From the NCBI GenBank assembly GCA_045601625.1, contig JAZSAA010000200.1, forward strand, positions 1-43,375: a stretch of 43,375 nucleotides of DNA. Direction: 5' to 3'. Under the pieces are notes generated by a model that saw nothing but the letters and a program-made list of their open reading frames with translations, was not told where the DNA came from and did no database searches. The position numbers and the translations under genes were made by a program. The DNA comes from Clostridia bacterium (lineage in GTDB: Bacteria; Bacillota; Clostridia; Christensenellales; Aristaeellaceae). Shown here piece by piece: positions 19,062 to 36,418 of the stretch (positions are counted from its first letter, which is position 1; each line of letters starts with the position of its first letter).

Positions 19062-19138
19062 ACCACGTCCCCCCCTCCGTTCTCTGAACACTTCACCGTC
19101 CAGACCCAGTCCCGCCCCCTGACACGAGCGCGGCAGTC

Positions 19139-20014
19139 TTAGACCCGTTCCCCCAGATAGTCATGGACGGCTTCCACCAGCTCCGCGCTCCAGAAGCTCC
19201 CCTCGTGGGGCGCGTCCGGAACCCGGTACATCGTCGCGTCGTGCCCGCATTCCAGCAGCCTGCGATACAGCCGCTCGCTCTGGCGGTAGTTGACGACAGA
19301 ATCCCCCGTCCCGTGCAGCAGCAGGAACGGAGGCAGCGCCCTGCCCGGCGACACATGCCGCATGGGGCTGATCAGCCGCATCCGCTCCCGCGCCGCTTCG
19401 TTCAGCGGGAACCCGCACAGCTTCGCGAAGATGGTGTCCGGATCGTCCTGCATGCCGGCATAGTCCTCGTCCGCCATGGCTTCGAGGTCGGCGGGCCCAA
19501 AGCAATCCACCACGCATTTCACCGCGTCGGATTCCCCGGCGTATTCCTCCGTCTCAAAGCGCGGGTCGCCCGCGGTCAGGCCCACCAGCAGCGCCGTGTT
19601 TCCGCCGGAGCTGGTGCCCCATACGGCGACGCGCCCCGGATCGATGCCATAGTCCCCCGCGTGGGCGCGCAGGAAGCGGATCGCCGTCTTTACATCCACC
19701 AGGAAGGCCGGCGCCATAAACCCATCCAGACAGGAACGGTGCCCCACCGTCGCCACCACATAGCCCTTGCGCGACAGCTCGGAAAGCTGTGGGATCTCCG
19801 CACCCCGATCGGGCGTCGTCCAGGCGCTTCCTTGAACAAAGACGATCAGCGGATACTCGGCCTTTCCTAGCGTGTCCTGGTGCTGGTTCGCCCACGGGCG
19901 CAGCAGGTCCAGCGTGCAGCCGGGCCGGTCGGCATAGGGAATATTCATATCGATCCGGGAAAAGCCCTCCAGCGCAGGGTTCAGGGGAAGGGATCTGATT
20001 TCAGAACGGCTCAT
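19139..20014 (-). CDS. Alpha/beta hydrolase (esterase/lipase-like)
   Basis: 291 aa from MSRSEIRS, with AGGAGG upstream. The nucleophile elbow is GTSSGGN. A C-terminal LLLHGTGDSVV (Asp) and PDAPHEG (His) complete a Ser-Asp-His triad. Confidence 0.85.
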   Translation of the reverse strand: MSRSEIRSLPLNPALEGFSRIDMNIPYADRPGCTLDLLRPWANQHQDTLGKAEYPLIVFVQGSAWTTPDRGAEIPQLSELSRKGYVVATVGHRSCLDGFMAPAFLVDVKTAIRFLRAHAGDYGIDPGRVAVWGTSSGGNTALLVGLTAGDPRFETEEYAGESDAVKCVVDCFGPADLEAMADEDYAGMQDDPDTIFAKLCGFPLNEAARERMRLISPMRHVSPGRALPPFLLLHGTGDSVVNYRQSERLYRRLLECGHDATMYRVPDAPHEGSFWSAELVEAVHDYLGERV

Positions 20015-20326
20015 ATCTGCGTCGCCTCCTATCGGTTTCACCGGGCCTGACGGTATTGGATTGTCGCAGGTCTATTTTATCATATAACAGGCGCTTAATA
20101 ATCACAGGAGTGCTTTAATAATGTGTCAACTGCGTAATATCAGGCGCAACCACGCCGCGCGTCGCCCGCCTTCCCTCAGCCCGGGAGGGCTGTTGGAAAT
20201 TGACATGGTTTCAACCGCGGGGGTTGATTATACCTCCATTTTTCGGTATGCTATAAGGTGACGGAATCGAAATCACGCCACCGGCCTGACCCGATGGCGC
20301 TGAATAGCACAGACACGGAGGGACAA

Positions 20327-20923
20327 ATGATCAGGAATATCGTCTTTGACCTGGTGGGCGTCGTCATGCGCTTCGACACAGAGGGCTACTACCGGCTCCA
20401 CGACATCTCCTCCACGGATCAGGACATCCTCCAGCGCGAGGTGTTCCGGTCCCTGGAATGGGCGATGCAGGACCGGGGCACCATTTCGGAGGAGGACGCC
20501 ATAGCGGCCATCTGCCCCCGCGTGCCGGCGCGCCTGCACACGGCCGTGGGCGACTTCATCCGCCGGCAGAACCGCGACATCCTGCCGGTGCCGGGCATGG
20601 AAAAACTGCTGCGGGATTTGAAGGACGGCGGGCGCCGCCTGTTCCTGCTCTCCAACACCAGCAGGGCCTTTCACCGCTTTCGCGCCCGGGTGCCGGGAAC
20701 AGAGCTCTTTGAGGGCACGCTGATCAGCGCCGACGAGGGGCTGGTGAAGCCCGACCCGGCGATATTCCGGCTGGCGTGCAAGCGGTTTGGCATACTACCG
20801 TCCGAATCCGCCTTCATCGACGATACGCCGATCAACGCCGAGGCCGCCCTGTACATCGGCATGAAGGCCTTTGTCTTCAACGGGGATGTGGGGCTTCTCA
20901 GGGCGTGGCTGGAGGAGACCTAA
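20327..20923 (+). CDS. HAD-superfamily hydrolase (subfamily IA-like)
   Basis: Start at MIRNIVFDLVGVV (motif I), with GGAGGG upstream. LLSNTS (motif II) and a C-terminal FIDDTPINAEAA (motif IV) are present. Confidence 0.85.
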   Translation: MIRNIVFDLVGVVMRFDTEGYYRLHDISSTDQDILQREVFRSLEWAMQDRGTISEEDAIAAICPRVPARLHTAVGDFIRRQNRDILPVPGMEKLLRDLKDGGRRLFLLSNTSRAFHRFRARVPGTELFEGTLISADEGLVKPDPAIFRLACKRFGILPSESAFIDDTPINAEAALYIGMKAFVFNGDVGLLRAWLEET

Positions 20924-22659
20924 GCGATATCCCTCAGCACGAGGACCAGGTTGTTCAGGTTCATGGAATAGGTATAGCGCGCCTCGTCCGCCATGCGCAT
21001 GGCCAGGCGAATGCCCAGGCCCTCGCCGCCGCCGTGCTCGACGTGGGCGACGGGGTCGAAGGCCGTGCAATCGTCCCTGAAGCGCAGCGTCCAGCGCCCA
21101 TGCTTCACCTGCAGGCGGATAGAGAGCCGGTTTTTCCCGTCCGCTGCGAAGCCATGGCGGGCGATGTTGCCGCCCATCTCCTCCACGCACAGCGCCAGGT
21201 GGGCGGCGAGGCGCTCGCTGCCGCCGTGGGCGCGGCAGAAATCCGACGCTGACCGGGAGTAGGCCATCATCGCGTCCATGTCCCGCAGGATCGCTTCATA
21301 CCGATCCCGTTCGGGCACGCCGAAGTCGTCCCGGAGCAGCAGTATGTCCTCCGCCCGCCAGGTAATGCCGCCCTTTTTCAGCCACACGTAGCCCAGGATG
21401 CCCGCCAGCGAGATCGCCTCGCCCACGGCAAAGTAGAGCCATATCCCGTTCAGGCCCGTCAGCCTGCCCAGCGCGAAGGCCGCCAGCGTCGGCACCACCG
21501 CGTTCGCCATCACGGAAATCACTTCCATCAGTCGTACGCGCCCGGTGCCCTGGTAGCAGTTGCGCAGGCCGTTGCTCAGGCAGCAGGGGATCAGCCCCAG
21601 CGCGAACATCCGCAGGCCCGGTATCGCCAGGGCCTTGCTCTGCGCCGCGCCGGGAACGAACAGGTTCGCCAGCGGCTGGGCGAAGGCCATCAGCAGCGCC
21701 ATCGCCGCCACGCCCAGCACCACCGCCCAGCGCGCGATCAGCCGCAGCAGCTCCGAAAGCCCCCCGCGGTCCTCCTCGTTGTACAGCACGCCGGATAGGG
21801 TCAGTGCCACGCCGCCCATGCCCGTGCTGATGCAGTTTGCCGCGTTGGTGATGGAGGTGATCAGCGCGTAGGCCGCCACCGCCGCCTTGCCGCCCAGATC
21901 CATCAGCAGTCTGTTCACCGCGAACACCAGCGCCACCGTGGACGCCATGCCGAACACCGTGGGCAGGCCGCCGGCCGCCAGCTCCCGGATCTTGCGCCAC
22001 TGGATGCCCTTTACGCTGAACGTGAACACGCAGTTCTTCGACAGGAAATAGCTGCCCCCGATGATCATGGCCACATAGTAGCTCAGCGCCGAAGCCAGGC
22101 CCATGCCGAACATGCCCCCGTGGAACACGGCCACGTTCAGCCAGTCCAGGGCCACGTCCGCCACGGTCATGCCCAGCACGGCGGCGATCAGCAGGTTTCC
22201 CTGCCCCGCCATCTGCAAGAACGGCACCAGGACCAGCGCCCCCATCGATGCCGGCGCGCCGATGACGAAGCCCGCCATGTAGCTGCTGGTATCCGCAAGC
22301 AGCACGGGCTCCCTCGCGCCCAGCATCCGCGCCAGCGGCACCCGCAGGAGCGCCACCAGCAGCGTGAACACCAGCGAGAGCGCCGCCGCCAGGGCCACGG
22401 AGGAGGAATAGCCCACGTCCGTCTCCAGCCGGTCGCCCCGGCCCAGGGATTTGCCGCACGCCACCTGGGCCCCGGCGCACAGCATGCTGCCGATGGCCCC
22501 GATGATCAGCAGAACCGGGCCCGCGAGCCCGTAGGCCGACAGCGCGCCCTCGCCCAGGAAGCGCCCGATCATCAGGTTGTCGATGAGCAAACACAGCGAT
22601 ACCGTCAGCGCGGAGAGGATCTGCGCGGCCAGCATCTGTCCAACCAGCTTCTTTATCAT
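20920..22659 (-). CDS. MATE-family efflux transporter fused to a C-terminal SpoIIAB/RsbW-like HATPase_c domain
   Basis: The first ~445 aa contain 12 TM helices with a MATE-like N-terminus (LIDNLMIGRFLGEGALSAYGLAGPV). The last ~125 aa carry an N-box-like CVEEMGGNIARHG, a DDCTAFDP segment and a G-box GLGIRLA. Confidence 0.8.
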   Translation of the reverse strand: MIKKLVGQMLAAQILSALTVSLCLLIDNLMIGRFLGEGALSAYGLAGPVLLIIGAIGSMLCAGAQVACGKSLGRGDRLETDVGYSSSVALAAALSLVFTLLVALLRVPLARMLGAREPVLLADTSSYMAGFVIGAPASMGALVLVPFLQMAGQGNLLIAAVLGMTVADVALDWLNVAVFHGGMFGMGLASALSYYVAMIIGGSYFLSKNCVFTFSVKGIQWRKIRELAAGGLPTVFGMASTVALVFAVNRLLMDLGGKAAVAAYALITSITNAANCISTGMGGVALTLSGVLYNEEDRGGLSELLRLIARWAVVLGVAAMALLMAFAQPLANLFVPGAAQSKALAIPGLRMFALGLIPCCLSNGLRNCYQGTGRVRLMEVISVMANAVVPTLAAFALGRLTGLNGIWLYFAVGEAISLAGILGYVWLKKGGITWRAEDILLLRDDFGVPERDRYEAILRDMDAMMAYSRSASDFCRAHGGSERLAAHLALCVEEMGGNIARHGFAADGKNRLSIRLQVKHGRWTLRFRDDCTAFDPVAHVEHGGGEGLGIRLAMRMADEARYTYSMNLNNLVLVLRDIA

Positions 22660-23693: not shown

Positions 23694-26183
23694 TTACTCC
23701 GCTTTATCCAGGGCCGAACAGCCGCGCCCATACAGGACCTGCGTGCCGTAGGTCCACTTTCCGTCCGGGCCCTGCGCCAGCGCGGGGATGTCGATGGGCA
23801 GCCTGCCGGGCATGTCCCCGTCCCCGAAGATCGCGCACAGCGCGGCGGGGACGTTGGCGTTGTACGCGCCCGCGTTCCCGGAGCCCTCGGCGCGGGCGGC
23901 GGGGTCCACGCCGAAGCCCGCCGACAGGTACGCGCACACGATGGCGTCCGCGTCCGCAAACCGCGCCGCGTCCACGGGCAGGTTGTCGCTGAGCAGCACG
24001 AACCTCGCGCCGCCCCCGTGGGCGTCCTCCAGCGCCCTGCGAACGCCCTGCACCTGCGGGTTGTCGTCCTGGAGCCTCTCCAGGCCCGCGCCGACATTGT
24101 CGAGGCACACCACGACGTCGGCGGCCCTGACGGCCCCGGCGAGTTCGTCGGTGTATGCCAGCTCCCCGCTGTCGTAATAGCGGTCGATCACGATGGCGGT
24201 GGAAGCGTCCCCGTCGCCCGAGGTCTCCCCGGTGATGCGGTTTTCAATCCGCGCATCAGGGTCGATGAAGCCGCCCTCCATAAGCCGCTCCAGCGCGTAG
24301 CAGATGGGCGTGTTGTCCGTATCCGTGCGGCCGAGGATTACGATTCTCCCGCCCCTGATCGGCAAAATCCCATCGTCCTTCAGCAGCGTGACCGCCTGCC
24401 GGGCGGTTTCTTCCTCCACCGCGTGATGGGCCTCGGAGCCGACGATCCTTTCGGCGGCCTCAAGGCGCTGTTCCGCCGGGGTCGCGTCCAATTCCAGGAG
24501 GCCGTGCCTTTCCTTCAGGGTGAGTATCCGGCGCAGGGAGGCGTCGATGCGATCTTCTTCGATCGCGCCGTCCTCGACCAGCGCGGCGATGCCTGCGATA
24601 TAATCGTCGTAGTACTGCGCAGCGTCCTCGCCGGTCAGGTCCGTGGGCAGCAGCAGTATGTCGCAGCCCGCGTCGATGGCTGCCCGGGCTACCTGCACGT
24701 CGTGCGCCACAGTGGCAAAGTCGCCGGTGAACAGCTGCGCGCCGGTGTCCGGCTCGGTGACGAACTGCTGCATCTCGAGGGCGTCCGTCATCACCACGCC
24801 GTCGAATCCCAATTCCTCGCGGAGCATCCCGATGATGATTTTCGGCGACAGCGTGGCGGGCAGGAAGCCCCTGGTGACGCCGTCCGCCATCAGCTGTTCG
24901 TCATCGATCAGCGGGAACGTGGTCGCCGAGGTCATCACCATCTCCGCGCCGTTTTCAATGGCCGCCCGGAAGGCGGACAGCCCGTTCTGCGCCAGCTGTT
25001 CCTCTGTCAGCCATATGGAGGTGGGATAGTCGCTGCCGTCACCCGCGCCGGGAAAGTGCTTGAAGCAGGTGATCACGTTGCTCTGGCCCACGCCTCCGGC
25101 GAAGGCCAGGCCGAGCCGGGCCACCGTCTGTATGTCGTCGGAGAACACGCGGGTGCTCATGCCCGGGTCCGCCAGGTCCGTGATGACGTCGATGCAGGGG
25201 CCCAGGTTCACGTTGATGCCCAGGGCCTCCAGCTCCTCCCCGAATACCTCGCCGATGGCCCGGGCGTTCTGCCCGGCGGCCTCGCCGGTGGCGCCGATGG
25301 CCATGCTGCCCGTGCCCCGGGTGCCCATGGTCAGCCGCGCCACGGAGCCGCCCTCCTGGTCCGCGGCCACCAGATACGGTATGGCCCGGTCCGCGCCCAG
25401 GGTGTTGTTGCGCTGCAGGTCGTCGATCAGCCGCAGGGTCTGCCCGGCGCTTTCGATGTTCGAGCCGAACAGGATCACGCCGCCATACGGATGTCGGCGC
25501 AGCGCCTCAGCCAGCGCCGGCTGGGCGGACAGGTCCGTCACCTTTTCGCCGTCCCAGGCGCGCAGTGCCGGCATGATCATCTGCGCGACCTTCTCATCGA
25601 GGCTCATGGAATCGATCAGCCCGTCCACAGGCGACCCGGCGTTCGCGGCGTTGCCCATGGCCAGCGTGTAATCCCGCAGGTTCTCCCAGGCCGGGCGGGT
25701 CAGCGGATCGCGCATGGCCGCGTCCATCCCGTCGGCCACGCCCGCGTCCTCAAACGCGCCGCGGTTGGCGTCGTAATCCTCCAGGCAGTCGTCCAGCAGG
25801 GCGCGCACGGCGTCGAAGTTTTCCCGGAACAGCGCCTGCCCGTCTCCGTCCATCGCCTCGAAGGCGGCCAGCATGTTGGCGCGCACAGGCGCAGCGTCCA
25901 GGGCGTCCAGCCGGTAGGCCCGGGCGAAGGCGCACACCTCGCTGGCCGCGATCGCCAGCTTGAGGGACGCGCCCGCCGTCCCCGTCTCCAGGCCCGCGAC
26001 CACCGAAAAATAGCCCTCCGCGAATTCTTCCGCCGTGGGCGCCTGCGCCGGATCAGACTGCGCCTCCCCGGGGGCCGGATCGACGGCGGGGCTGTTGACC
26101 TCTCCGCATGCCCCCGCCGTAATCACCAGCGCCAGCACCAGCACCAGGGCCAGCAGGACGATGCGCTTTGCAATACTCTTCAT
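23694..26183 (-). CDS. Exported glycoside hydrolase family 3 enzyme (beta-N-acetylhexosaminidase NagZ/YbbD-like) with an extra ~190-aa N-terminal region and a C-terminal GH3 domain
   Basis: Start at MKSIAKRIVLLALVLVLALVITAGAC (signal peptide, possible lipobox). GH3 motifs KHFPGAGDGS and GVVMTDALEM (Asp nucleophile) are present. Confidence 0.88.
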   Translation of the reverse strand: MKSIAKRIVLLALVLVLALVITAGACGEVNSPAVDPAPGEAQSDPAQAPTAEEFAEGYFSVVAGLETGTAGASLKLAIAASEVCAFARAYRLDALDAAPVRANMLAAFEAMDGDGQALFRENFDAVRALLDDCLEDYDANRGAFEDAGVADGMDAAMRDPLTRPAWENLRDYTLAMGNAANAGSPVDGLIDSMSLDEKVAQMIMPALRAWDGEKVTDLSAQPALAEALRRHPYGGVILFGSNIESAGQTLRLIDDLQRNNTLGADRAIPYLVAADQEGGSVARLTMGTRGTGSMAIGATGEAAGQNARAIGEVFGEELEALGINVNLGPCIDVITDLADPGMSTRVFSDDIQTVARLGLAFAGGVGQSNVITCFKHFPGAGDGSDYPTSIWLTEEQLAQNGLSAFRAAIENGAEMVMTSATTFPLIDDEQLMADGVTRGFLPATLSPKIIIGMLREELGFDGVVMTDALEMQQFVTEPDTGAQLFTGDFATVAHDVQVARAAIDAGCDILLLPTDLTGEDAAQYYDDYIAGIAALVEDGAIEEDRIDASLRRILTLKERHGLLELDATPAEQRLEAAERIVGSEAHHAVEEETARQAVTLLKDDGILPIRGGRIVILGRTDTDNTPICYALERLMEGGFIDPDARIENRITGETSGDGDASTAIVIDRYYDSGELAYTDELAGAVRAADVVVCLDNVGAGLERLQDDNPQVQGVRRALEDAHGGGARFVLLSDNLPVDAARFADADAIVCAYLSAGFGVDPAARAEGSGNAGAYNANVPAALCAIFGDGDMPGRLPIDIPALAQGPDGKWTYGTQVLYGRGCSALDKAE

Positions 26184-26341: not shown

Positions 26342-26707
26342 TCAGTCCCGGAGCGCCGACAGGAGCTTTTCCAGCATGCGCCCCGACGCTGCCAGCACCG
26401 ACTGTATGCCCGCCTTCGTCAGGCCCTCGTAGTGCATGCCGGCTTCCACCACGACGGGGGCGAATCCGCATTCGGACAGCGCCGCCGCCCAGGTTTCGCT
26501 GATCGCGGCGTCCCGGTGGCCGGGGAACTGGGTGGTCGCCGTTTCCACGCCGGGCATGGCGACGCTGACCGCGCCGATGTGCGGCCGGTCGCCGCCGTAA
26601 ACCGAAACGTGGACGCCCTCGGCGAACACCAGCGCCTCGGCGACGATCGCCTGTCCCAGGCAGTCCTCCGACAGGCGCATGCGTTTGATCTCATCAGCCA
26701 TGGCCAT
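26342..26707 (-). CDS. lpdD: LpdD-like small subunit (prenylated-flavin chaperone-type partner of UbiD/UbiX decarboxylases)
   Basis: About 121 aa. The start overlaps the ubiX stop by 14 nt; an alternative ATG at 26701 has better RBS spacing. The YGGDRPHIGAVSVA motif and the position after the C and B subunits match the LpdD/BsdD slot. The family call is from memory and was not searched. Confidence 0.6.
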   Translation of the reverse strand: MAMADEIKRMRLSEDCLGQAIVAEALVFAEGVHVSVYGGDRPHIGAVSVAMPGVETATTQFPGHRDAAISETWAAALSECGFAPVVVEAGMHYEGLTKAGIQSVLAASGRMLEKLLSALRD

Positions 26708-27272
26708 TCGTCCCCGGCCACTCATAGCCGTCGACCTCCAGTTCAAACTGGCCGAGTATGCGCCCGACGGTATGGGCGGTGCATTCCTCGACTGTCGAGG
26801 GCCTTCGGTAGTAGGCCGGCACGGGCGGCAGGATCACCGCGCCCAGCCGGCTGGCCTCGTACAGGTTGCGCAGGTGAACGGTGGACAGCGGCGTCTCCCG
26901 CGCCACCAATACCAGCTTCCTGCGCTCCTTCAGGCACACGTCCGCCGTGCGCAGCAGCAGGTTGTCGCTGTAGCCCGAGACGATGCCCGCCACGGTCTTC
27001 ATGCTGCACGGCACGACGATCATGCCCATGGTCCTGAACGAACCGCTGGCGATACACCCGCCGATGGCGTCGATGTCGTGCCACGCGGCGGCCATCGCCT
27101 TCAGCTGTTCGACGGTGGTGTCGCACTCCGCCTCCAGCGTCATCTCCGCGCCCTTCGTCATCACCAAATGCGTCTCCACCTCGGGATGGCGCCGGTTCAG
27201 CTGTCTCAGCAGTTCCACAGCCAGCGGCGCGCCGGACGCGCCGCTCATGCCCACGATCAAACGCTTAGCCAT
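26694..27272 (-). CDS. ubiX: Flavin prenyltransferase UbiX (LpdB/BsdB-type decarboxylase B subunit)
   Basis: 192 aa from MAKRLIVGMSGASGAPLAVELLRQL. Canonical UbiX/Pad1 motifs are present. The ATG overlaps the ubiD stop (ATGGCTAA, 8 nt). Confidence 0.93.
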   Translation of the reverse strand: MAKRLIVGMSGASGAPLAVELLRQLNRRHPEVETHLVMTKGAEMTLEAECDTTVEQLKAMAAAWHDIDAIGGCIASGSFRTMGMIVVPCSMKTVAGIVSGYSDNLLLRTADVCLKERRKLVLVARETPLSTVHLRNLYEASRLGAVILPPVPAYYRRPSTVEECTAHTVGRILGQFELEVDGYEWPGTNGHG

Positions 27273-28737
27273 GCAGCCACTCCTCCGGGTCGAGCGCCAT
27301 GAACGGCGCGCGAATGAATCGGTCCTTCTGGTCAAAGGGAACGGTGCAGTCGAATATGGTCTTGCAGGAGATGCCCACATCCCGTATGGACGGGCTGTAT
27401 TCCGGGCTGGAGCTGGGGTCCAGCGGATGGCAGCGCACGCCGGGAATCGTGATGATGTCCCGGTCCCCCTGGAAGCGGGTGTTCATGGCCCAGAGCACGT
27501 CGTCGGTGTCGAAGATGTCCACGTCCTCGTCCACCAGGATCACGTGCTTGAGCTCCGGGAACGCCGAAAACGCCAGCATGGCCGCCTGCCGCTGCTTGCC
27601 CTCGTCGGTGCGCACGGTCTTCCTGCACTGGAGGATGGCCATATACTTGCCACCGCCCGAGCGATGGGCGTACACATTGGTCACCTTGCCGGGCAGCGCG
27701 CGGTCGATCAGGCTGAATATGCTGGCCTCGGTGGGCAGGCCCGCCATGTTCACGTGCTCCTCGCTGGGGCCGATGCAGGTCTGCATGATGGGGTGTTCCC
27801 GATGGGTCACGGCCTTCACCTTCAGCAGCCAGCACTCGTGGCTGGCCCTGCCGTTGTAGCCGGGGAACTCCGGCATGGCGTAGCCGGTATGGGAATTCTG
27901 GTCCTCCACCACGTGGTTGCTGCCGGGCAGGATCTCGCCTTCGATCACGTACTCGGCGTTGGCGATGGCCTGCTCGTTCACCGTGAGGCACTTCACCATC
28001 TTCACCGGCTCGCCCCGCAGCGCCCCGGCGATGGACAGCTCGTTGAAGCCCAGCGGCGTGGTCGGCGGCTCGAAGCAGGAGCACACCGACACCGCGGGAT
28101 CGACGCCGATGGACACCGAAATGGGCAGGGGCGCGCCCAGCTCCGTCGCCCGCTCGGCCATCGCGCCGATGTGGCGGCTGCCCGGCTGGAGGAAGATGGA
28201 CAGCTCGTCCTTCGACTGGATGCACATTCGGTGGATGGTGACGTCGGAAAGGCCGGTGTCCGGATGGGTGGCGTAGCACATGCCCAGGGTGATGTAGGGC
28301 CCGGCGTCCAGCGGCGTGTTGGTCGGCGCGGGGATCAGCCGGTTCAGGTCGAAGCCCGCGTCCGTCGCCAGGTGCACCACCTGCTGGCACGGCGCGGGGC
28401 CCTCCGTCAGCTCGGGCATGACGGGATGCTCCGCGCAGCGGCGGATGACGTGGGCCAGCTCCTCCTTTTTGCAGCCGAACAGCCTCGCCACCCGCGCCCG
28501 GGAAGCCATCACGCCGATGGCCACGGAAGCCTCCGGGTGGCCCTTGACGTTGTGGAAGATCATCGCGGGGCCGTCCACGGTCGTCGGACGCCGCACGGTG
28601 CCGCCCGCGCCCACGTAGCGGTACACGCCCGAGAGCTGGGCGGAGGGGTCCACCTCCACGTGGGTCTCAATCAGCTGCCCCGGTATCCCCCTGAGCATGT
28701 CCAGCGCGTCGCGCAGGCTGGTGATCTTCCGGTCCAT
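27265..28737 (-). CDS. lpdC: UbiD-family non-oxidative hydroxyarylic acid decarboxylase, C subunit (gallate/protocatechuate decarboxylase LpdC/BsdC-like)
   Basis: 490 aa. VEVDPSAQLSGVYRYVGAGGTVRRPT, PAPTNTPLDAGPYITLG, IGPSEEHVNMAGLPTEASI and ILVDEDVDIFD blocks match this UbiD subgroup. Gallate as the substrate is inferred from the adjacent tannase. Confidence 0.85.
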   Translation of the reverse strand: MDRKITSLRDALDMLRGIPGQLIETHVEVDPSAQLSGVYRYVGAGGTVRRPTTVDGPAMIFHNVKGHPEASVAIGVMASRARVARLFGCKKEELAHVIRRCAEHPVMPELTEGPAPCQQVVHLATDAGFDLNRLIPAPTNTPLDAGPYITLGMCYATHPDTGLSDVTIHRMCIQSKDELSIFLQPGSRHIGAMAERATELGAPLPISVSIGVDPAVSVCSCFEPPTTPLGFNELSIAGALRGEPVKMVKCLTVNEQAIANAEYVIEGEILPGSNHVVEDQNSHTGYAMPEFPGYNGRASHECWLLKVKAVTHREHPIMQTCIGPSEEHVNMAGLPTEASIFSLIDRALPGKVTNVYAHRSGGGKYMAILQCRKTVRTDEGKQRQAAMLAFSAFPELKHVILVDEDVDIFDTDDVLWAMNTRFQGDRDIITIPGVRCHPLDPSSSPEYSPSIRDVGISCKTIFDCTVPFDQKDRFIRAPFMALDPEEWLHG

Positions 28738-28755
28738 ATTCCAACCTCCCGTTTT

Positions 28756-30420
28756 TCATTTGCAGATCGCGTCGATCCAGTCCAGCACCTCGCCGGGATA
28801 GTCCGCGTCGCAATGGGGCTGATCCCACACCAGGGCGTAGTCCACGGCATGACCGGCGTTTTGCAGCCGAAGGGCCAGCGTCATGGAGACGGTGAAGGCG
28901 GTGTCGGCGTCGGACGCGCCCACGCGGATGCGGAAGCGCCGCGCCTTCTTCCCCCGGCCATCGTCGATGTAGTTCATGGGATTGAACACCCGGATGCGTT
29001 CCAAGAGCTTATCGTCGCCCAGGATCTCGTCGTAGCCTGGCTTGTACAGCGCCGCCTCCTGGGGAAAGTCCGCCGCCAATGCGCCGATGGCCGCCCCGAT
29101 CTGCCCGTCAAAATGGCGGTTGGCATGGGTGCCATCGCCAAACACATCGTTCTCGCCGCTGTCACAGGTCAGCTTGTCGAAGGATGTGCATGGCTTCATG
29201 CGCCGGCGATGGTTCAGCACGTAGGTGTCCAGGTCGGCGATCGCCGCCCGGGAGCCGTCCCAGCTGAGCCACGCCCGCTTGTCCGTCCCCTGGCGGGTCT
29301 CCATGGGCAGCTTCATCTCGTTGAACGGCACGCCCCTCGGCGGGCGCAGCATCATCTCGCCCACGGTCAGGCGCTTCTGCGCGACGCCGCCGGCGTTCGG
29401 GCCCACGTGGTGCAGGTCGGGATTGTCGGGCTTTTCGGGCTTCGCGGGGGCCTGGAAGGTGTAGTTGCCGGCGATGTAGTCCGCCGCGCCGTCTCCCTTC
29501 TTCTTCAGAAACTTCGCCGCGGACGCGCCCAGCAGGGCCATCAGGTAATCGTAGAAGCCGCCGCTTCGACCGTCGGGGTTCAGCGTCAGCGCCGCGCCGG
29601 TGGCGGGATGGCGCAGGTTCAGCCCGTTCACGTAGTCGATATAACGGGCGGCCAGCGCCTTCGACAGCGCCGCCTTGAAGGGCGTCATGGTCTCAGCCAT
29701 GCCCGCCGGGGAATCCTCGCAGGTCGCGTCCGCGCCGAAGCACCACTCGTAGGCCAGGTCGGCGTGCTCCAGGTCGATGATCGGGCAGTAGATCTGTGAG
29801 GCGAACATGGCGTCGCTCTCGTCCATGAAGGCCCCGGCCTCCCGCAGGTAGTCCTCGTAGTCCGGGTGGTCGCCGGTCACGCCCAGTAGCGCGCTCATGG
29901 CCCCGCCGGCGCTGACGCCGCAGGAGATCATCCGGTCCCAGTCCCCCGGCAGCGCGCCGCGGTTGTGGCGCAGGAACCGCACGGCCATCTTGGTATCGAC
30001 CAGCGTGACGGGCGCCTTGCCCACCGGTTCCCCCGCCGCGTTGCGGGATTCCCGGCCCCGGCAGCCCGCGGTGACGTAGACCATGCCGCGCCCGATGTAC
30101 TTTTCCCCGTCGCAGCGCGGGCCGCCCAGCCACTTGTGTGGCATCTGCATGTAGCCCGCCGCGTTGGTCTCGAACAGCACCGGCGCTGTCCGGGCGGTAT
30201 AACCGCAGCATTCCCCCGCCGGGTTCACCGTGCCGTCGGCGTTCATATAGGCCTTCGGTGCGTAGACCGACAGCCGCTGGAAGGCGGGCGCATCCGCCCT
30301 GGGGCTGTAGAGCACGTCCTCCAGGCACCAGCAGCCGTACTTTTCATCGAAGAACCACCTGTCCCGGCAGTCGGCCAGCTCCATGGTATCGTTGACGATA
30401 TTGATTATAGCATTGTTCAT
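28756..30420 (-). CDS. tanB: Subtype B tannase (tannin acyl hydrolase), intracellular
   Basis: GKAPVTLVDTKMAVRFLRHNRGALPGDWDRMISCGVSAGG (GxSxG), YCPIIDLEHADLAYEW and the C-terminal RIRVGASDADT...WDQPHCDADYPGEVLDWIDAICK parallel Lactiplantibacillus plantarum TanB. No signal peptide. The start was taken at MNNAII (ATG 30420); the ORF-track GTG at 30432 has no RBS spacing. Confidence 0.88.
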   Translation of the reverse strand: MNNAIINIVNDTMELADCRDRWFFDEKYGCWCLEDVLYSPRADAPAFQRLSVYAPKAYMNADGTVNPAGECCGYTARTAPVLFETNAAGYMQMPHKWLGGPRCDGEKYIGRGMVYVTAGCRGRESRNAAGEPVGKAPVTLVDTKMAVRFLRHNRGALPGDWDRMISCGVSAGGAMSALLGVTGDHPDYEDYLREAGAFMDESDAMFASQIYCPIIDLEHADLAYEWCFGADATCEDSPAGMAETMTPFKAALSKALAARYIDYVNGLNLRHPATGAALTLNPDGRSGGFYDYLMALLGASAAKFLKKKGDGAADYIAGNYTFQAPAKPEKPDNPDLHHVGPNAGGVAQKRLTVGEMMLRPPRGVPFNEMKLPMETRQGTDKRAWLSWDGSRAAIADLDTYVLNHRRRMKPCTSFDKLTCDSGENDVFGDGTHANRHFDGQIGAAIGALAADFPQEAALYKPGYDEILGDDKLLERIRVFNPMNYIDDGRGKKARRFRIRVGASDADTAFTVSMTLALRLQNAGHAVDYALVWDQPHCDADYPGEVLDWIDAICK

Positions 30421-30658
30421 GGCATATGTCACCCCCTGAGCATATTATTTCAGAATCGCCCAAATGGCGAAATGACAGCCCGCTTTGACGCCGCGGAACC
30501 CCTCCGGCCCTGCTGCCGGCAGGCCCACCTCCCCTTTCAGGGGAGGCTCTGTCTATGCAGCTGCAACGGCAGCGCTTCTCCTGAGAGGAGAGGCGCCGGG
30601 CAAAGTGAGTCGAAGGGTTCCGGACAATCCGGCGCTCTGAGCAGTAACGGCGGTCTGT

Positions 30659-31642
30659 TTACGCCGCGGCCCTCTCCTCCTTGCGCCTGTTGGCGGCGAT
30701 GGCCCGGCGCTTGATCTGGAAGGCGTCGAACCACATCACCAGCAGCATGATCGCGCCCTTGGCGATGTACTGGTAGTAGGTGTTCAGGCCGGCCAGCTGC
30801 ATGCCGTTGGTAAGCAGGCCCATGATCAGCACGCCCGCGATGCAGTTGGCGATCTTGCCGTCGCCGCCGCGTACGGAGACGCCGCCCACCAGCACGCCGG
30901 TCAGCACGGTGATCTCGGTGCCGGCCGCGGTGGAGGCAGCCGCCGCGCCCACGCGGCTGGTGAGGATCAGCGCGCCCAGGCCGCAGAAGAAGCCCGCGAT
31001 GCAGCCGATGGCATACTTCATGCGCTTGACGTTGATGCCCGCCAGCCGCGCGGCGTTCTCATTGCCGCCCAGGGCGAACACATAGCGGCCGAAGTAGGTG
31101 CGGTCCATGACGATGCTCATCACGACGCCGAACACCACCATGATCAGCGTGGCGTAGGTCAGGGACGGGTGCAACACGGTGCCCTGGCCCAGCACCTTGA
31201 AGGACGCCGGCAGGCCGGAGATGGTCTTGGAGTTGGTGATGACGTAGGCCACGCCCTGGTACACGGTGCTCAGGCCGATGGACACGAAGATGCGGGGCAG
31301 CTGCAACAGCTGCTCCAGCAGCGTGCCCAGCGCGCCGAAGCAGACGGCTGCCAATATGGTAATGATGCAGGCGACGAACACCGGTACCCCGGCCAGGATC
31401 ATCATGGCCGCCATGACGCCGCAGATGGACATCATGTAGCCCACAGACATGTCCAGGCCGCCGGACATCATGATCAGCGCGATGCCGTAGGTGGCGATGA
31501 TGATGTAGGCGTTCTGATTGAGTATGTTCAGAAGGTTCGTCAGCGTCAGGAAGTTGTTGCTGGTAAAGGAGAAGATGATGCAGATGACCACCAGCAGCAC
31601 CCAGGCCAGGTTTTTCCGGCCGAAGTCAACGATCTTTTTCAT
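30659..31642 (-). CDS. ABC transporter permease, CUT2 (RbsC/AraH-like) family
   Basis: 327 aa with about 9-10 TM helices and typical ribose-type permease sequence (LNILNQNAYIIIATYGIALIMMSGGLDMSVG). Confidence 0.9.
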   Translation of the reverse strand: MKKIVDFGRKNLAWVLLVVICIIFSFTSNNFLTLTNLLNILNQNAYIIIATYGIALIMMSGGLDMSVGYMMSICGVMAAMMILAGVPVFVACIITILAAVCFGALGTLLEQLLQLPRIFVSIGLSTVYQGVAYVITNSKTISGLPASFKVLGQGTVLHPSLTYATLIMVVFGVVMSIVMDRTYFGRYVFALGGNENAARLAGINVKRMKYAIGCIAGFFCGLGALILTSRVGAAAASTAAGTEITVLTGVLVGGVSVRGGDGKIANCIAGVLIMGLLTNGMQLAGLNTYYQYIAKGAIMLLVMWFDAFQIKRRAIAANRRKEERAAA

Positions 31643-31660
31643 GTGTATATCCCCCTCTAT

Positions 31661-33145
31661 TCACATGCCAGAGGCCAGTTCGAGAACCCTGTCCTGGCTG
31701 AATTCGTCCTTTTGAAGCTCGCCCGCCACGACGCCCTCGTGGAGCACCACGATGCGGTCGGACATGCCCAGCAGCTCCTCCATCTCCGAGGAGATCATCA
31801 ATATGCTCTTGCCTTCCTCCACCAGCCGGTTCATCAGCAGGTAGATCTCCCGCTTCGCGCCGACGTCGATGCCACGGGTGGGCTCGTCGAAGATCAGCAC
31901 GTCGTTCTGGGCCGCCAGCACCTTGGCCACGACCACCTTCTGCTGGTTGCCGCCGGACAGGTTCTTCACCTGCTGCTTGACGGAGGGCGTCTTGACGTCC
32001 AGGGTCCTGACGTAGGTCCCGGTCAGCTCGTCGGCCTTTTTGAAGTCGATAAAGCCCATCCTGCTGATTTTCTTCATGCTCATGATGGGGATGTTCCACT
32101 CGATGGTGTATTCCAGGAACACGCCCTCGTTCTTGCGGTCCTCGGGCACCAGGCCGATGCCCGCCACCACGCCGTCGGCGGCGGAGGCGGCCTTCATGGG
32201 CCTGCCGTTGACGATGATCTGCCCCGAATCGGGCTTCACGTCGCCGCAGAGCATCTTGGCCAGCTCCGTCCTGCCCGCGCCCACCAGCCCGGCCAGGCCC
32301 AGGATCTCGCCCTTTTTCAGCTCCAGGTTGATGTGGAAGTCGCCGTTGCCGGTCAGGTCCTTCACCTGCAATACGGGCGCGCCCAGCTTCACGTTTCGCT
32401 CCGGGAACTTCTCGGTCAGCTCCCGGCCGATCATGTACTTGATCAGGTCCTGCTTGGTGATATCCGCCACGTTGCGGGTCACCACATACTGGCCGTCCCG
32501 GAATACCGTCACCCTGTCGCACAGCTCGAACAGCTCTTCCAGGCGGTGGCTGATGTAGATGATGGCCACGCCCTTTTCCTTCAGCCGCCGCACGATGCGA
32601 AACATGTTCTGCACCTCGGCCATGGGGATGGAGGCGCTGGGCTCGTCCATGATGAGCAGCTTGCAGTTCTTTACCACAGCCTTGGCGATCTCAACGATCT
32701 GCATCTGGGCGGTGGAGAGCATCTGCACCTGGGTGCTCACGTCGATCTTCACGCCCAGGTCGGCCATGACCTCCTCGGCCCGCCTGCGCATCTCCCTGAA
32801 ATCCGGCATGAACCGCCCGCCCAGCTTCTCGCCCAGGAAGATATTCTCCATGATGCTCAGCGAGGGCACGAGATTCAATTCCTGGTACACCACGCCCACG
32901 CCGGCGTCCCTGGCGATGGAGGGCGTCAGGCGCTCGTAGGGCTTGCCATCGATGACGATTGTGCCGCTGTCCGGGTTGATGGCCCCGGCGATGGTCTTGA
33001 TCACGGTGGACTTGCCCGCCCCGTTTTCGCCGATCAGCGCCAGGATCTCGCCGTACTCCACGTCGAAGGACACGTTGTCCAGCGCCACGACGCCCGGATA
33101 GGTCTTGGTCACGTTCTTTACCTCAAGAACCTTTGCCATATCCAT
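31661..33145 (-). CDS. ABC transporter ATP-binding protein, CUT2 family, duplicated ATPase (RbsA/MglA-like)
   Basis: 494 aa. Walker A motifs GENGAGKST and GLVGAGRTE, the CUT2-type LSxAQMQIVEIAKA, and the signature LSGGNQQKV are present. An alternative start at 33139 (MAKVLEV) has better RBS spacing. Confidence 0.93.
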   Translation of the reverse strand: MDMAKVLEVKNVTKTYPGVVALDNVSFDVEYGEILALIGENGAGKSTVIKTIAGAINPDSGTIVIDGKPYERLTPSIARDAGVGVVYQELNLVPSLSIMENIFLGEKLGGRFMPDFREMRRRAEEVMADLGVKIDVSTQVQMLSTAQMQIVEIAKAVVKNCKLLIMDEPSASIPMAEVQNMFRIVRRLKEKGVAIIYISHRLEELFELCDRVTVFRDGQYVVTRNVADITKQDLIKYMIGRELTEKFPERNVKLGAPVLQVKDLTGNGDFHINLELKKGEILGLAGLVGAGRTELAKMLCGDVKPDSGQIIVNGRPMKAASAADGVVAGIGLVPEDRKNEGVFLEYTIEWNIPIMSMKKISRMGFIDFKKADELTGTYVRTLDVKTPSVKQQVKNLSGGNQQKVVVAKVLAAQNDVLIFDEPTRGIDVGAKREIYLLMNRLVEEGKSILMISSEMEELLGMSDRIVVLHEGVVAGELQKDEFSQDRVLELASGM

Positions 33146-33220
33146 TTTCCTTTCGTCTGTCTTATGAAATGAGACTTTCCGGGAAAGCCTCGGAAAGTCT
33201 CGTCATTCCGCCGGTACGGA

Positions 33221-34210
33221 TCAGTTGGCCGGGAAGTAGTTGCCGATGGTCTCGGGGGTGATCTTGATGCACTCCTCGGAGTACACGGAATCCACCACGC
33301 GGTCCATCCAGGAGCCGTCCATCAGGTTGTAGCAGGTCATGGGGGTGCCCTCGCCCAGCATCACGGTGCCGCGCAGCACGGACTCGCCGGAGGCGGACTC
33401 GATGACCTTGTTGCGGATGAACTCGGCGGTATCGATGGTGAACACGGCGAACTCGTCCTTGTTGATGGCGCCGTTGATCATCGCGGCCTCGTTCGCGCCG
33501 GCGCCCTGGTCGGTGCCATAGGTCAGGATGGCCTTCAGGTTGGGATGGTTCATCAGCTCCATCTCGGCGTAGTTCTGGCCGGCCACGGAGCCGTCGGCCT
33601 GAGTAGTCTCATGCTCCTCGACGATGGTGACCTTCTTGTTGATGTCGGCGATGGTGCGCAGTCCGTCGCAGCGGGCCACGGCGTCCTCGTTCTCGGAATT
33701 GGTCAGCAGCGCGACCTCGATGGAGCCGTCCTCGGCGTCCGGGAAGGTGGCGTCGATCCACTCGGAGGCCAGCTCGGCCTCCACCGCGCCGGATTCGTAC
33801 TGGCTGATGGAGATGCACACGTCCGCGGCGTCCTTGTTGTCCAGCACCGTGCCGATGACGATGATGAACGCGCCGCTCTCGCGGGCCTTGATCAGGGTGT
33901 CGGTGATGGAGGAAGCGTCCACCACGAAGCAGATGATGTAGTCCATGCCCATGGAGACGAAGTTCTCGACGGTCTGGATCTGGGTCTGGGCGTTGCCGGC
34001 GGCGTCAGCGACGCTGTACTCCATGCCCCGCTCTGTGAAGTAGGCTTCCATCTGGTTGGACATGTCGGTAAAGAACTCGGAAGACATCATCAGGGCGGAA
34101 AAGCCCACCTTCTTGCCGGTCAAGTCAGCGCCGGAGGTCTCCGCCATCGCGGAAACAGACAGGGACAGCAGCATGGCAACCGCCAGCAGGATACCGAGGA
34201 TCTTCTTCAT
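33221..34210 (-). CDS. ABC transporter substrate-binding protein, periplasmic-binding-protein type I (RbsB-like)
   Basis: 329 aa from MKKILGILLAVAMLLSLSVSAMA, with GGAGGA upstream. The signal peptide has no lipobox Cys. The fold is LacI/RbsB-like (KVGFSALMMSSEFF..., IICFVVDASS, VIGTVLD). Confidence 0.88.
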   Translation of the reverse strand: MKKILGILLAVAMLLSLSVSAMAETSGADLTGKKVGFSALMMSSEFFTDMSNQMEAYFTERGMEYSVADAAGNAQTQIQTVENFVSMGMDYIICFVVDASSITDTLIKARESGAFIIVIGTVLDNKDAADVCISISQYESGAVEAELASEWIDATFPDAEDGSIEVALLTNSENEDAVARCDGLRTIADINKKVTIVEEHETTQADGSVAGQNYAEMELMNHPNLKAILTYGTDQGAGANEAAMINGAINKDEFAVFTIDTAEFIRNKVIESASGESVLRGTVMLGEGTPMTCYNLMDGSWMDRVVDSVYSEECIKITPETIGNYFPAN

Positions 34211-34307
34211 AAAACAATTCCTCCATTTCGCTATATTCTGCGGGTCGATCCGCAAAGGAAACCTTGTCGCAAAGTGACCGTCAACCGGTTCAACTTTGAT
34301 CGGCTTC

Positions 34308-34337
34308 ATTATAGCAAAATGGAGAAATCAGCTGCAA
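34308..34337 (-). promoter_or_regulatory. Candidate sigma-70 promoter of the ABC-tannase-decarboxylase block
   Basis: On the minus strand: TTGCAG (34337-34332), an 18-nt spacer, then TGC-TATAAT (TATAAT at 34313-34308). It lies about 95 nt upstream of the SBP ATG at 34210. Confidence 0.55.
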
Positions 34338-34357
34338 TTCTTTATTTTTCCGGGTAC

Positions 34358-34374
34358 GATTCCAGAATGGAATC
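34358..34374. promoter_or_regulatory. Perfect dyad GATTCCA-N3-TGGAATC containing a T-N11-A core: candidate LysR-type regulator recognition site
   Basis: GATTCCAGAATGGAATC is centred at 34366, about 65 nt upstream of the TSS predicted from the promoter at 34308-34337. It overlaps the lysR stop codon. Confidence 0.35.
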
Positions 34375-35293
34375 ATGTTGTCCCGTCCTCCGCCTCGAAC
34401 AGGCTGATGAAATACCGGGCGTATTCGGAAAGCGGCTCGTGCTTCAGGCAGGCGATGTACACCTCGGCGGTCACGGCGGGGCGGATGGGCACCACGGCGT
34501 ACTCGGTGCCGCTGCCCTGCCGGTTCTGCACGTGGGAGGAAAACATCAGCGCCGTGCGCCTGCCCTTGACCACCATGTCCAGCATGGCGTCGCGGTTGTG
34601 GCTGGTGAAGTCCACCCGGGGCACGAAGCCCGCCGTCTTGCAGGCCGACACGCAGAGATGGTAGGGCAGCGAGCCCTCCTTGATCAGCACGAAGGGGTCG
34701 TCGGAGAGCTGGCGCAGGTCCAGCTGCTTCTCCCCCGCAAGCGGATGGTCCAGCGGCAGCACGGCCACCAGCTCGTCCCGGCAGAAGGGGATTCGGCGCA
34801 GCATGTCCTCGCTGGCCGGGACCGACGAAGCGTCAAAGGCGTCCCGCGAGGTGCGCATGATCGCCAGGTCGCACCGGTGCTCCAGCAGCTCCTTTCGGAT
34901 GATGATGGAATCCGCCTCGCTGACGGCGATCTGCACTTCCGGGTATCGCCGCTGGAACTGGAGAAACTTCTCGGTGATGCTGTATTCCGGCAGGGCTGGA
35001 ATGGCGTTGATGCGCAGCACCTTCGCCTCGCTGTGAAGCATGCGGTAGGCCGCCTCCTCGTAGCTGCCCTTCACCCGCAGCAGGTCGTAGGCATAGGGCA
35101 GCAGCATCCGCCCGAAGGGCGTCAGCTCGAGCCGGTGGTAGCCCCGCTCAAACAGCGGCGAACCCAGCTCCTTCTCCATCGCCTTGATATGCTTCGACAG
35201 CGTGGATTGCGTCGTGTACAGCTTATCCGCCGCGTTTGAATAGTGCAGCGTCTCCGACAGCACGACAAATTCCAGAAACCAGTTCAGATCCAT
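34373..35293 (-). CDS. LysR-family transcriptional regulator
   Basis: 306 aa. The N-terminal wHTH is MDLNWFLEFVVLSETLHYSNAADKLYTTQSTLSKHIKAMEKELGSPLFER, followed by a typical LTTR effector domain. Confidence 0.93.
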   Translation of the reverse strand: MDLNWFLEFVVLSETLHYSNAADKLYTTQSTLSKHIKAMEKELGSPLFERGYHRLELTPFGRMLLPYAYDLLRVKGSYEEAAYRMLHSEAKVLRINAIPALPEYSITEKFLQFQRRYPEVQIAVSEADSIIIRKELLEHRCDLAIMRTSRDAFDASSVPASEDMLRRIPFCRDELVAVLPLDHPLAGEKQLDLRQLSDDPFVLIKEGSLPYHLCVSACKTAGFVPRVDFTSHNRDAMLDMVVKGRRTALMFSSHVQNRQGSGTEYAVVPIRPAVTAEVYIACLKHEPLSEYARYFISLFEAEDGTT

Positions 35294-35542: not shown

Positions 35543-36418
35543 TCAAACCTTGACTTGCCCGACCCCCTGAAGGAAGGCGCACTGTTCGTCGTTGCAGCGG
35601 CGTCCGGCTTCGGACCTCATGTCGCAGTGAAACACGTGTCCCAGCGCGTGGGCCGCGTCTCCGTAGAAGCGCATGATATGGGGTATCCGCTTCTGCCGCA
35701 GCGCGACCTGCATCGCGTCGGCCTGTTCCTGCAGGAAGTCTCCGGTACAGGTGAACAGGAAGGTCTCCGGGAACGACGGGGTGAGCCACCGCTTCACGTC
35801 CACCAACGCCAGGTTGCCGGGCGTCGGCCCGCCGGGCAGCAGGTCCTCCATCAGCTTCATGTGCTGATCGTCGCCGGGATCGATGGCGTATACGCCGCAG
35901 GCCAGCGATATCGCTTTCGGCACAGGGCCGAAGGCAAAGGGAAAGCGGCGGGCGTACTCTGAATTCGTGCAGGCAGCGCAATACAACCCAAGGAGATGGG
36001 CGCCCGCGCTGTCGCCGACGGCGAAGAGCCCGTTCCTGTCCATGCCGTACTCCCCGGCGTTGGCATTGACCCACGCAAACACCGCCGCGATGTCCTCCAG
36101 CTGGGCGGGGAAGCGATGCTCCGGCGCGAGGCGGTAGGAGAAGTTGACCACGGCAAAGCCCCGCCGGGCAAGGCTCATCGTGTAATACTGGTACAGCGCC
36201 TTGTCCCCGTAAACCCAGCCGCCGCCATGCACGCTGACGATGACGGGCAGGGGCCCCGTCGCGTTTACCGGCCGGTACACATCCAGCCTTTGCAGCGGAT
36301 GCGCGCCGTAGGCAATGTCGTCAAAGCGCCGGATATCGTCCGGCGTCGTAAGCCCCGCGTCGCGTATGGCGTCGCTCGCGGCAAATTCCCTTCGGATCCT
36401 GTCACTCGTAACGGACAT
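35543..36418 (-). CDS. Alpha/beta hydrolase fold-3 esterase (hormone-sensitive-lipase family)
   Basis: 291 aa from MSVTSDRIRR. The oxyanion-hole motif is VHGGGWVYGD and the nucleophile elbow is GDSAGAH. Downstream Asp and His are present. Confidence 0.88.
   Translation of the reverse strand: MSVTSDRIRREFAASDAIRDAGLTTPDDIRRFDDIAYGAHPLQRLDVYRPVNATGPLPVIVSVHGGGWVYGDKALYQYYTMSLARRGFAVVNFSYRLAPEHRFPAQLEDIAAVFAWVNANAGEYGMDRNGLFAVGDSAGAHLLGLYCAACTNSEYARRFPFAFGPVPKAISLACGVYAIDPGDDQHMKLMEDLLPGGPTPGNLALVDVKRWLTPSFPETFLFTCTGDFLQEQADAMQVALRQKRIPHIMRFYGDAAHALGHVFHCDMRSEAGRRCNDEQCAFLQGVGQVKV

Follow-up and report, generated by a model that had tools for sequence, protein, structure and literature searches.

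We analysed a 43,375-bp contig of an NCBI metagenome-assembled genome (MAG) of a Clostridia bacterium (hereafter the window, meaning this whole stretch of DNA), which carries a run of minus-strand genes with a predicted role in the uptake and breakdown of gallate esters. An earlier note on this DNA had claimed eight such genes between positions 26342 and 35293, and Pfam and NCBIfam searches found each of them in its place and bore out the family assignments. In gene order these are: a LysR-type transcriptional regulator (LTTR; 34373–35293, 306 aa, HTH_1 and LysR_substrate domains); the substrate-binding protein (SBP; 33221–34210, 329 aa, Peripla_BP_4), the fused two-domain, RbsA/AraG-like ATPase (31661–33145, two ABC_tran domains) and the permease (30659–31642, BPD_transp_2) of an ATP-binding cassette (ABC) importer of CUT2 type; a long-form, intracellular subtype-B tannase (28756–30420, 554 aa, NF041556; alternative GTG start at 30432); a UbiD-family decarboxylase of AroY/LpdC type (27265–28737, 490 aa, UbiD_N/UbiD/UbiD_C); a UbiX flavin prenyltransferase equivalent to LpdB (26694–27272); and an LpdD-type chaperone for the reduced prenylated flavin mononucleotide, prFMNH2 (26342–26725, PF21758, 127 aa from the ATG at 26725 or 121 aa from 26707).

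The 18-nt gap between tanB and ubiD given in the earlier note was confirmed on the sequence and holds a GGGAGG ribosome-binding site, as was the 8-nt overlap of ubiD and ubiX (ATGGCTAA). The 14-nt overlap claimed for ubiX and lpdD holds if lpdD starts at 26707 but not with the ATG at 26725. This ATG is preceded by GGAGG at a distance of 9 nt, and the annotation of a near-identical contig also starts the gene there; the 127-aa form, overlapping ubiX by 32 nt, appears the more likely one. Three features go beyond that first description: the 162-nt spacer between the LTTR and SBP genes holds a palindrome and a promoter-like site, the 238-nt spacer between the permease and tannase genes contains stem-loops, and a GH3 glycoside hydrolase gene lies directly downstream of lpdD on the same strand. 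The GC content is even over the locus.

The 554-aa protein scored 341.6 bits against the NCBIfam subtype-B tannase equivalog NF041556 (cut-off 300) and only 262 bits against the subtype-A model (cut-off 550), so that comparison with TanA and TanB by hidden Markov model (HMM) agreed with the subtype B named in the earlier note. The narrow margin is due to an insertion of ~75 aa, which divides the match into two stretches, and relatives of equal length likewise score near the NF041556 cut-off. The tannase is ~41% identical to Lactiplantibacillus plantarum TanB over 406 aligned residues, and in a phmmer alignment to TanB (3wa6) all six of the residues Ser163, Lys343, Glu357, Asp419, Asp421 and His451 are aligned and identical; we take Ser163, Asp419 and His451 to be catalytic, and Lys343, Glu357 and Asp421 to hold the three galloyl hydroxyls. 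The GVSAGG nucleophile motif, which together with the C-terminal Asp and His had been likened to TanB, aligns with GTSAGG of that enzyme, and both Asp419 and His451 are conserved. By inspection, the N-terminus (MNNAIINIVNDTMELADCRDRWFFDEKYG) has no hydrophobic leader and hence no signal peptide, and the substrate must therefore be imported. We read 28756–30420 as an intracellular subtype-B tannase, which is predicted to hydrolyse galloyl esters.

The placement of the UbiD protein was made against PDB and NCBIfam references. It matched AroY of Enterobacter cloacae (PDB 5ny5) with 610 bits and 56% identity over 483 residues, every other solved UbiD enzyme scoring 215 bits or less, and the acid-base residues Glu289 and Lys363 of that AroY are conserved as E290 and K364. 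A 4-hydroxybenzoate/vanillate decarboxylase of the VdcC/BsdC kind was considered and rejected: the score against NF041204 was 450 bits, below the cut-off of 650, and the partner is an LpdD-type protein, the VdcD/BsdD proteins being short. Thus the AroY-like and not VdcC/BsdC-like nature of the enzyme stood on the PDB and NCBIfam scores, whereas a preference for gallate over protocatechuate cannot be fixed from sequence because AroY, the closest solved relative, accepts both; AroY decarboxylates protocatechuate and gallate alike, and quantitatively, while L. plantarum LpdC in Escherichia coli cells was active on gallate only. Gallate is favoured as the substrate by the presence of a tannase partner and by the conservation of the galloyl pocket.

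The cofactor proteins fit this placement. UbiX scored 235.6 bits against PRK06029, whose cut-off is 188, and 204.8 bits against TIGR00421, whose cut-off is 108.9. The LpdD-like protein scored 79.4 bits against PF21758 (gathering score 27), a family labelled 'LpdD_chaperone' in the precomputed annotation, and matched the LpdD structure 8p4w (E = 6.6e-5) with His35, His61 and Asp63 aligned and conserved. These three residues are the metal ligands of LpdD in the structurally characterised prFMNH2 chaperone (PMC10865409), and chaperones of this type have been described together with the gallate decarboxylase LpdC. HMM, PDB and residue checks thus agree with the two steps proposed in the earlier note, galloyl-ester hydrolysis followed by gallate decarboxylation by UbiD, UbiX and LpdD. 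Genes for onward degradation of pyrogallol or phloroglucinol were absent from the window, the other genes of the contig being housekeeping or miscellaneous, and pyrogallol is taken as the end product for that reason.

The three importer proteins have the architecture of CUT2 systems, with a Peripla_BP_4 binding protein, a fused double ATPase and a BPD_transp_2 permease. The SBP gene has a GGAGG ribosome-binding site before its ATG at 34210 and codes for an N-terminal signal peptide. Its leader is of the signal-peptidase-I type (…SVSAMA/ETSG) with no lipobox cysteine, an unusual trait in the binding protein of a Gram-positive ABC importer; the leader of the downstream GH3 protein, unlike that of the SBP, is of the lipoprotein type (…VITAGAC). 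All NCBIfam equivalog models of sugar systems remained below cut-off, with 37 bits for the SBP (510 for YtfQ) and 516–533 bits for the ATPase against the AraG, RbsA and XylG models (533 vs. 689 for AraG). Only distant relatives of the SBP were found in the PDB (best E = 3.7e-9). The best folds for its AlphaFold2 model (mean predicted local distance difference test score 90.9) were ribose- and monosaccharide-binding proteins at 13–21% identity in Foldseek, and we set aside the attempt to read a ligand from the model since the search returned only such generic binders. In a low-identity alignment to the E. coli ribose-binding protein, the sugar-contacting pair Asp89-Arg90 appears to be replaced by an invariant Gly-Thr, a comparison to which we give little weight. 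The SBP family is small and tight: 169 proteins matched with E ≤ 1e-10 in a library of 5.8 billion proteins, and the 120 relatives listed were 55–99% identical to the query.

What ties these ABC genes to the enzymes is their genomic company. A metagenome scan seeded with the SBP gave nine loci in which the SBP homologue was 76% identical or more, and UbiD, UbiX and a tannase-like gene stood beside the ABC genes in all six of the nine that had enough flanking sequence (6/6), against none of six loci whose SBPs were 32–36% identical (0/6). The full eight-gene order is repeated in a metagenome contig (L081) at 40–93% protein identity and is nearly identical to the window in two further loci (L096 and L097), and since it recurs in all three it is not due to chance. 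Beyond these, in Lachnospiraceae-type contigs that carry orthogroup members at 57% and 84% identity, the ABC genes adjoin UbiD, UbiX, LpdD and tannase genes while a histidine kinase and an AraC response regulator take the place of the LTTR; one such contig has a canonical 465-aa TanB (646 bits) instead of the long-form tannase. Because the association survives a change of regulator, of tannase form and of gene order, the link appears to be functional and not merely inheritance as a block, and the ABC orthogroup is a candidate importer for gallate esters. CUT2 sets of lower identity near tannases (ATPase ~50% identical) were not counted, their frequency being about the chance level for abundant paralogues. 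In several loci of other lineages (L098 5853–9883, L100 6045–9878, and also L005, L075 and L079) the ABC orthogroup comes after genes for an AraC-type response regulator, for a sensor of the His_kinase type and for a protein of 442–448 aa. Pfam gave no match for this last protein in L098 and a weak one, to ABC_tran, in L100, and the three look like a three-component sensing module that replaces the LTTR. In the literature searched we found no ABC importer linked to a tannase, and this one appears to be new; a 2022 structural study describes the route of tannins or their fragments across the bacterial envelope as unknown.

To place the locus among its relatives, we scanned for tannases in one genome per species, which gave 80 loci, and scored the proximity of other genes by tblastn with the window proteins. 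By record name these loci come mostly from MAGs of rumen, deer, goat and other gut samples, and the best tannase relatives are 65–67% identical and labelled Clostridiales, Aristaeellaceae or Ca. Ventricola. UbiD was within the fetched flank in 44 of the 80 loci, and homologues of the LTTR (33–49% identity) adjoin the tannase in 34 of the 80. In the 30 loci with at least 20 kb of sequence, on which the following counts are based, UbiD and a BD-FAE esterase were each near the tannase in 24, GH3 in 19, an LTTR homologue in 18, an MFS_2 transporter (glycoside-pentoside-hexuronide type) in 17 and an ortholog of the window ABC system in 3. The window locus is thus the rarer, ABC variant of a widespread and modular tannase locus of gut Clostridia. 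In the commoner variant an MFS_2 symporter holds the equivalent place, a BD-FAE esterase and the tannase come next, often with an intracellular GH3, and in 8 loci with no UbiD in range the symporter stays with the esterases. The uncharacterised MFS_2-BD-FAE-tannase-UbiD loci of Lachnospiraceae and Oscillospiraceae (L020–L077) share with the window a LysR homologue with the same DNA box, a long-form tannase, UbiD/UbiX/LpdD, BD-FAE and GH3, but differ in having a symporter instead of the ABC system and an LTTR that is divergently transcribed, the box then lying in the promoter region common to both directions. Several close relatives bear record names that point to browsing herbivores (L082, N._stephensi_708_cecum, woodrat; L010, L011 and L014, roe deer; L007, sheep rumen), which, on the names only, is consistent with tannin-rich diets.

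The box just mentioned is a perfect palindrome directly after the stop codon of the window LTTR (GATTCCA-N3-TGGAATC, 34358–34374), with a core of ATTCC-N5-GGAAT. It is of the T-N11-A type, the general site architecture that LysR proteins recognise. Its centre lies ~53 nt upstream of a TG-extended TATAAT, with TTGCAG 18 nt before the TATAAT (34308–34337, minus strand, from reading the sequence upstream of the SBP gene); the automatic promoter scan missed this site, whose -35 element matches at only 3 of 6 positions. In L081 the intergenic region has diverged, yet the box, TTGC and GCTATAAT are kept at the same spacing. The exact core occurs 28 times in the 1.65 Mb of all fetched related loci, while 28 of 29 palindromes with permuted half-sites occur 0–5 times in the same sequence. 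The one outlier, with the half-site TTCCA (16 copies, inside coding sequence), was rejected as an operator: TTCCA-N5-TGGAA lies mostly at a constant offset of 394 nt from BD-FAE hits and otherwise beside BD-FAE or tannase, pointing to mostly coding matches. When up to one mismatch was allowed, 25 of 120 sites fell within 150 nt upstream of the starts of LTTR homologues, intervals that make up 0.67% of the sequence.

Altogether, over 20 related loci have the box next to a LysR homologue. Further copies lie upstream of UbiD (L049) and upstream of the tannase (L057), and in two loci (L060 and L065) the box is placed between a more distant CUT2 permease gene, which precedes it, and the esterase and tannase genes, which follow it; the extended consensus is AATCAATTCC-N5-GGAATTGATT. 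We regard ATTCC-N5-GGAAT as the candidate cognate operator of the LTTR, for which this conservation and placement are good comparative evidence. The regulator itself had no equivalog-level NCBIfam match and is a candidate sensor of gallate or a gallate ester. No LysR box of this kind was reported in the literature that we searched, and it appears to be new. Two other observations concern the same half-sites. In L019–L070 (e.g., L054 at 9773 and L062 at 9718) the motif TATTCCAG(C/T)GACTGGAATATG and an opposite-strand variant recur with another spacing of the half-sites, for the most part at a fixed 394 nt from BD-FAE hits, and we judged them to be conserved coding sequence. The only other exact ATTCC-N5-GGAAT of the window (13411–13425) is inside an open reading frame (ORF; 13289–16075) for a 928-aa AMP-binding enzyme and is probably a chance match.

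The permease-tannase spacer bears on how the locus is transcribed. It contains two GC-rich stem-loops without a U-tract (30528–30596, minus strand), a possible attenuator or stabiliser; its folding z-score of -1.2 is not exceptional. We saw no clear promoter upstream of the tannase gene, the sole scan match being inside the coding start, and scans found no canonical intrinsic terminator between the locus genes and no Rfam or tRNA match in the locus. In L081 the spacer is 62 nt long, with an 11-bp GC hairpin followed by UUUAU, and since this leaves no room for a promoter, read-through from the SBP promoter into the enzyme genes, possibly with attenuation, would be the simplest model. The LTTR probably has its own transcript.

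Two genes flank the eight. Upstream, on the same strand, is an intracellular carboxylesterase of the HSL/BD-FAE family (35543–36418, 291 aa) with HGGG and GDSAG motifs and matches to Pfam BD-FAE (105 bits) and Abhydrolase_3; its match to a LipP1-type HSL model of NCBIfam is below cut-off. The suggestion in the earlier note that this esterase extends the system gains support from the frequency of BD-FAE esterases near tannases given above and from the presence of such an esterase in L096 and L097, and it probably belongs to the locus as an accessory enzyme. Downstream, the GH3 glycoside hydrolase (23694–26183, minus strand, 829 aa, Glyco_hydro_3 205 bits, lipoprotein-type signal peptide) begins 122 nt after lpdD by the ORF start at 26219, or ~158 nt after it by the preferred start at 26183. 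The GH3 of the 19 long related loci is of a different, intracellular subfamily, and the window GH3 is a possible extracellular accessory enzyme of the locus.

Other groups of genes were seen further along the minus strand. About 3.6 kb beyond the end of the GH3 gene (23694) there is a second BD-FAE esterase (19139–20041, 300 aa, 151 bits) beside a DUF819 membrane protein (17889–19091), a pair (17889–20041) that might be another phenolic-ester module or be unrelated. Between this pair and the GH3 gene, a single 579-aa ORF (20920–22659) has a MatE efflux domain and, at its C-terminus, an HATPase_c_2 domain (anti-sigma-factor-like kinase); this is an unusual fusion unless two genes were taken for one. 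At the contig end (74–3231), a gene of the class-A beta-lactamase family (2338–3231) forms a cell-wall-related group with genes for alanine racemase and LD-carboxypeptidase.

The enzymatic steps predicted here are those of L. plantarum, with which the window shares an intracellular subtype-B tannase, a UbiD-type decarboxylase, UbiX, an LpdD chaperone and a LysR-type regulator (TanR, lp_2942). Unlike in that organism, the window genes are contiguous, uptake would be ATP-driven through a CUT2 system and the tannase is of the long form (554 vs. ~470 aa). In L. plantarum the tannin genes are dispersed, and more than 1 Mb separates lpdC from lpdBD (in strain WCFS1, TanB is lp_2956, LpdC is lp_2945, and LpdB/LpdD are lp_0271/0272), and the gallate transporter (lp_2943) is of the ion-transporter superfamily, is co-induced with lpdC and has been proposed to exchange gallate for pyrogallol with a gain in proton-motive force; the contrast with L. 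plantarum that the earlier note had drawn, in gene arrangement and transporter class, is thus borne out by the literature. The same note had presented the packaging of the whole pathway in one unit as the point of interest. The genes do travel together, but the novelty was overstated: in Streptococcus gallolyticus UCN34 sgdCBD are clustered close to tanB(Sg) and co-induced by methyl gallate, CbTan1 of Clostridium butyricum lies near a gallate decarboxylase, and such clusters are common in gut Clostridia. The S. gallolyticus genes resemble the window in keeping the C, B and D decarboxylase genes together near a subtype-B tannase; they differ in gene order and lineage (Bacilli vs. Clostridia), and the paper mentions no ABC importer or LysR box there.

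Two further comparisons concern single parts. The AroY enzymes of E. cloacae and Klebsiella pneumoniae (5ny5, 5o3n and 5o3m) resemble the window UbiD in the 56% identity and the conserved Glu289 and Lys363, but the cited work treats them as stand-alone enzymes from aerobic or facultative Proteobacteria, with no tannase or LpdD partner. The CUT2 importers RbsABC, XylFGH, AraFGH and YtfQRT share the three-component architecture and the SBP fold; the window SBP is set apart by its low identity to the solved members (13–21%) and by equivalog scores far below cut-offs, and its ABC genes by their genomic partners, which are aromatic-ester enzymes instead of sugar kinases and isomerases. Since the pathway chemistry and the clustering of tanB with decarboxylase genes are already known, the candidate importer and the conserved operator are what makes the locus interesting.

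Taken together, we think it likely that this is a LysR-controlled locus for the uptake and breakdown of small gallate esters, and probably also protocatechuate esters, derived from hydrolysable tannins. The LysR protein would bind ATTCC-N5-GGAAT ~65 nt upstream of where the SBP transcript is predicted to begin and activate transcription with gallate or a gallate ester as ligand. The secreted SBP would capture the substrate, most likely a galloyl-sugar or other neutral gallate ester, for import by the CUT2 permease and ATPase at the expense of ATP, and the cytoplasmic tannase would split it into gallate and an alcohol or sugar. The AroY/LpdC-type UbiD would convert gallate to pyrogallol (or protocatechuate to catechol) using prFMN that UbiX makes and the LpdD chaperone passes on, and the product would leave the cell. 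The BD-FAE/HSL esterase and the GH3 enzyme would probably broaden the range of plant phenolic conjugates that can be used. The benefit to the cell would lie in detoxification and in using the sugar that is set free.

The ligand of the importer is where other explanations come in. We consider it unlikely that the ABC system imports free gallate or protocatechuate set free by extracellular tannases of the community, with the esters for the tannase entering by another route. Such a role would match L. plantarum, in which the transporter induced with lpdC is a gallate transporter, and UbiD, like the tannase, is a constant companion of the ABC genes; an ester is nevertheless favoured because the cytoplasmic tannase needs an imported ester and the locus encodes no other transporter to feed it. 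CUT2 SBPs are also known for neutral sugars and polyols, and an ester or glycoside is further favoured over free gallate because the sister variant combines a glycoside symporter with an esterase, a tannase and often an intracellular GH3, the symporter being kept with esterases even in the loci that lack UbiD in range. Uptake driven by ATP would forfeit the proton-motive gain of gallate/pyrogallol exchange, which would be sensible if the released sugar is the pay-off; like the other arguments for an imported ester, this one is indirect, and it favours a galloyl-sugar or another neutral gallate ester. An ordinary monosaccharide importer (e.g., for glucose from gallotannins), linked to the enzymes by shared regulation or by chance, seems highly improbable. 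The fold and HMM matches do point to systems for ribose, xylose, arabinose and galactofuranose, Clostridia are rich in CUT2 importers, and lower-identity sets occur near tannases at about background frequency; but the orthogroup in question is small (the 169 proteins above), has diverged from all characterised sugar binders and stands beside tannase or UbiD in every informative context, over families, regulators and gene orders. The apparent Asp89-Arg90 to Gly-Thr change in the SBP points the same way, but is weak evidence.

A locus devoted mainly to esters of protocatechuate, or of another dihydroxybenzoate, with catechol as the product looks rather improbable to us, although the closest solved relative of the UbiD is the protocatechuate decarboxylase AroY at 56% identity and protocatechuate esters, too, are hydrolysed by bacterial subtype-B tannases. 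Gallate is decarboxylated quantitatively by AroY itself, Lys343, Glu357 and Asp421 of the TanB galloyl pocket are all conserved, and LpdD-type chaperones have been described with the gallate decarboxylase LpdC. The protocatechuate and gallate readings are compatible and not mutually exclusive. Several points weigh against the gallate-ester locus proposed here. Each functional step is predicted from homology and gene context, and the specificity of the UbiD for gallate or protocatechuate is one that its sequence does not decide. The SBP has a monosaccharide-binding fold with no sequence feature that marks an aromatic ligand, and could bind a sugar freed outside the cell or free gallate. The window locus has a single intergenic box and none upstream of the tannase gene (up to 2 mismatches), and the 238-nt spacer with its stem-loops could divide two transcripts. 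As for the flanking genes, L081 shows no esterase match in the ~0.8 kb upstream of its LTTR and no GH3 match in the ~1.5 kb downstream of its lpdD.

In the diets of herbivores and humans, hydrolysable tannins are among the major compounds with anti-nutritional and antimicrobial effects, gallate and pyrogallol are bioactive, and the enzymes that act on tannins are understood mainly from lactobacilli and S. gallolyticus. The loci described here show that uncultured gut Clostridia, by record name of ruminants, deer and woodrats, widely carry a modular tannase/decarboxylase locus, and they offer candidates for two missing parts, an importer (the ABC system or a glycoside symporter) and a regulatory switch (the LysR box). 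Going further, we put forward tentatively, as something that could well prove wrong in one part or the other, that the CUT2 system may be the first identifiable dedicated bacterial importer of galloyl esters (e.g., galloylglucose) and that the ATTCC-N5-GGAAT operator of its LysR partner may define a tannin regulon over the Clostridia of herbivore guts. The importer and the LysR box could serve as metagenome markers of tannin-degrading capacity or as parts of a gallate-ester biosensor and, if the proposal is true, importer and operator would make the entry of tannin fragments into bacterial cells directly testable.

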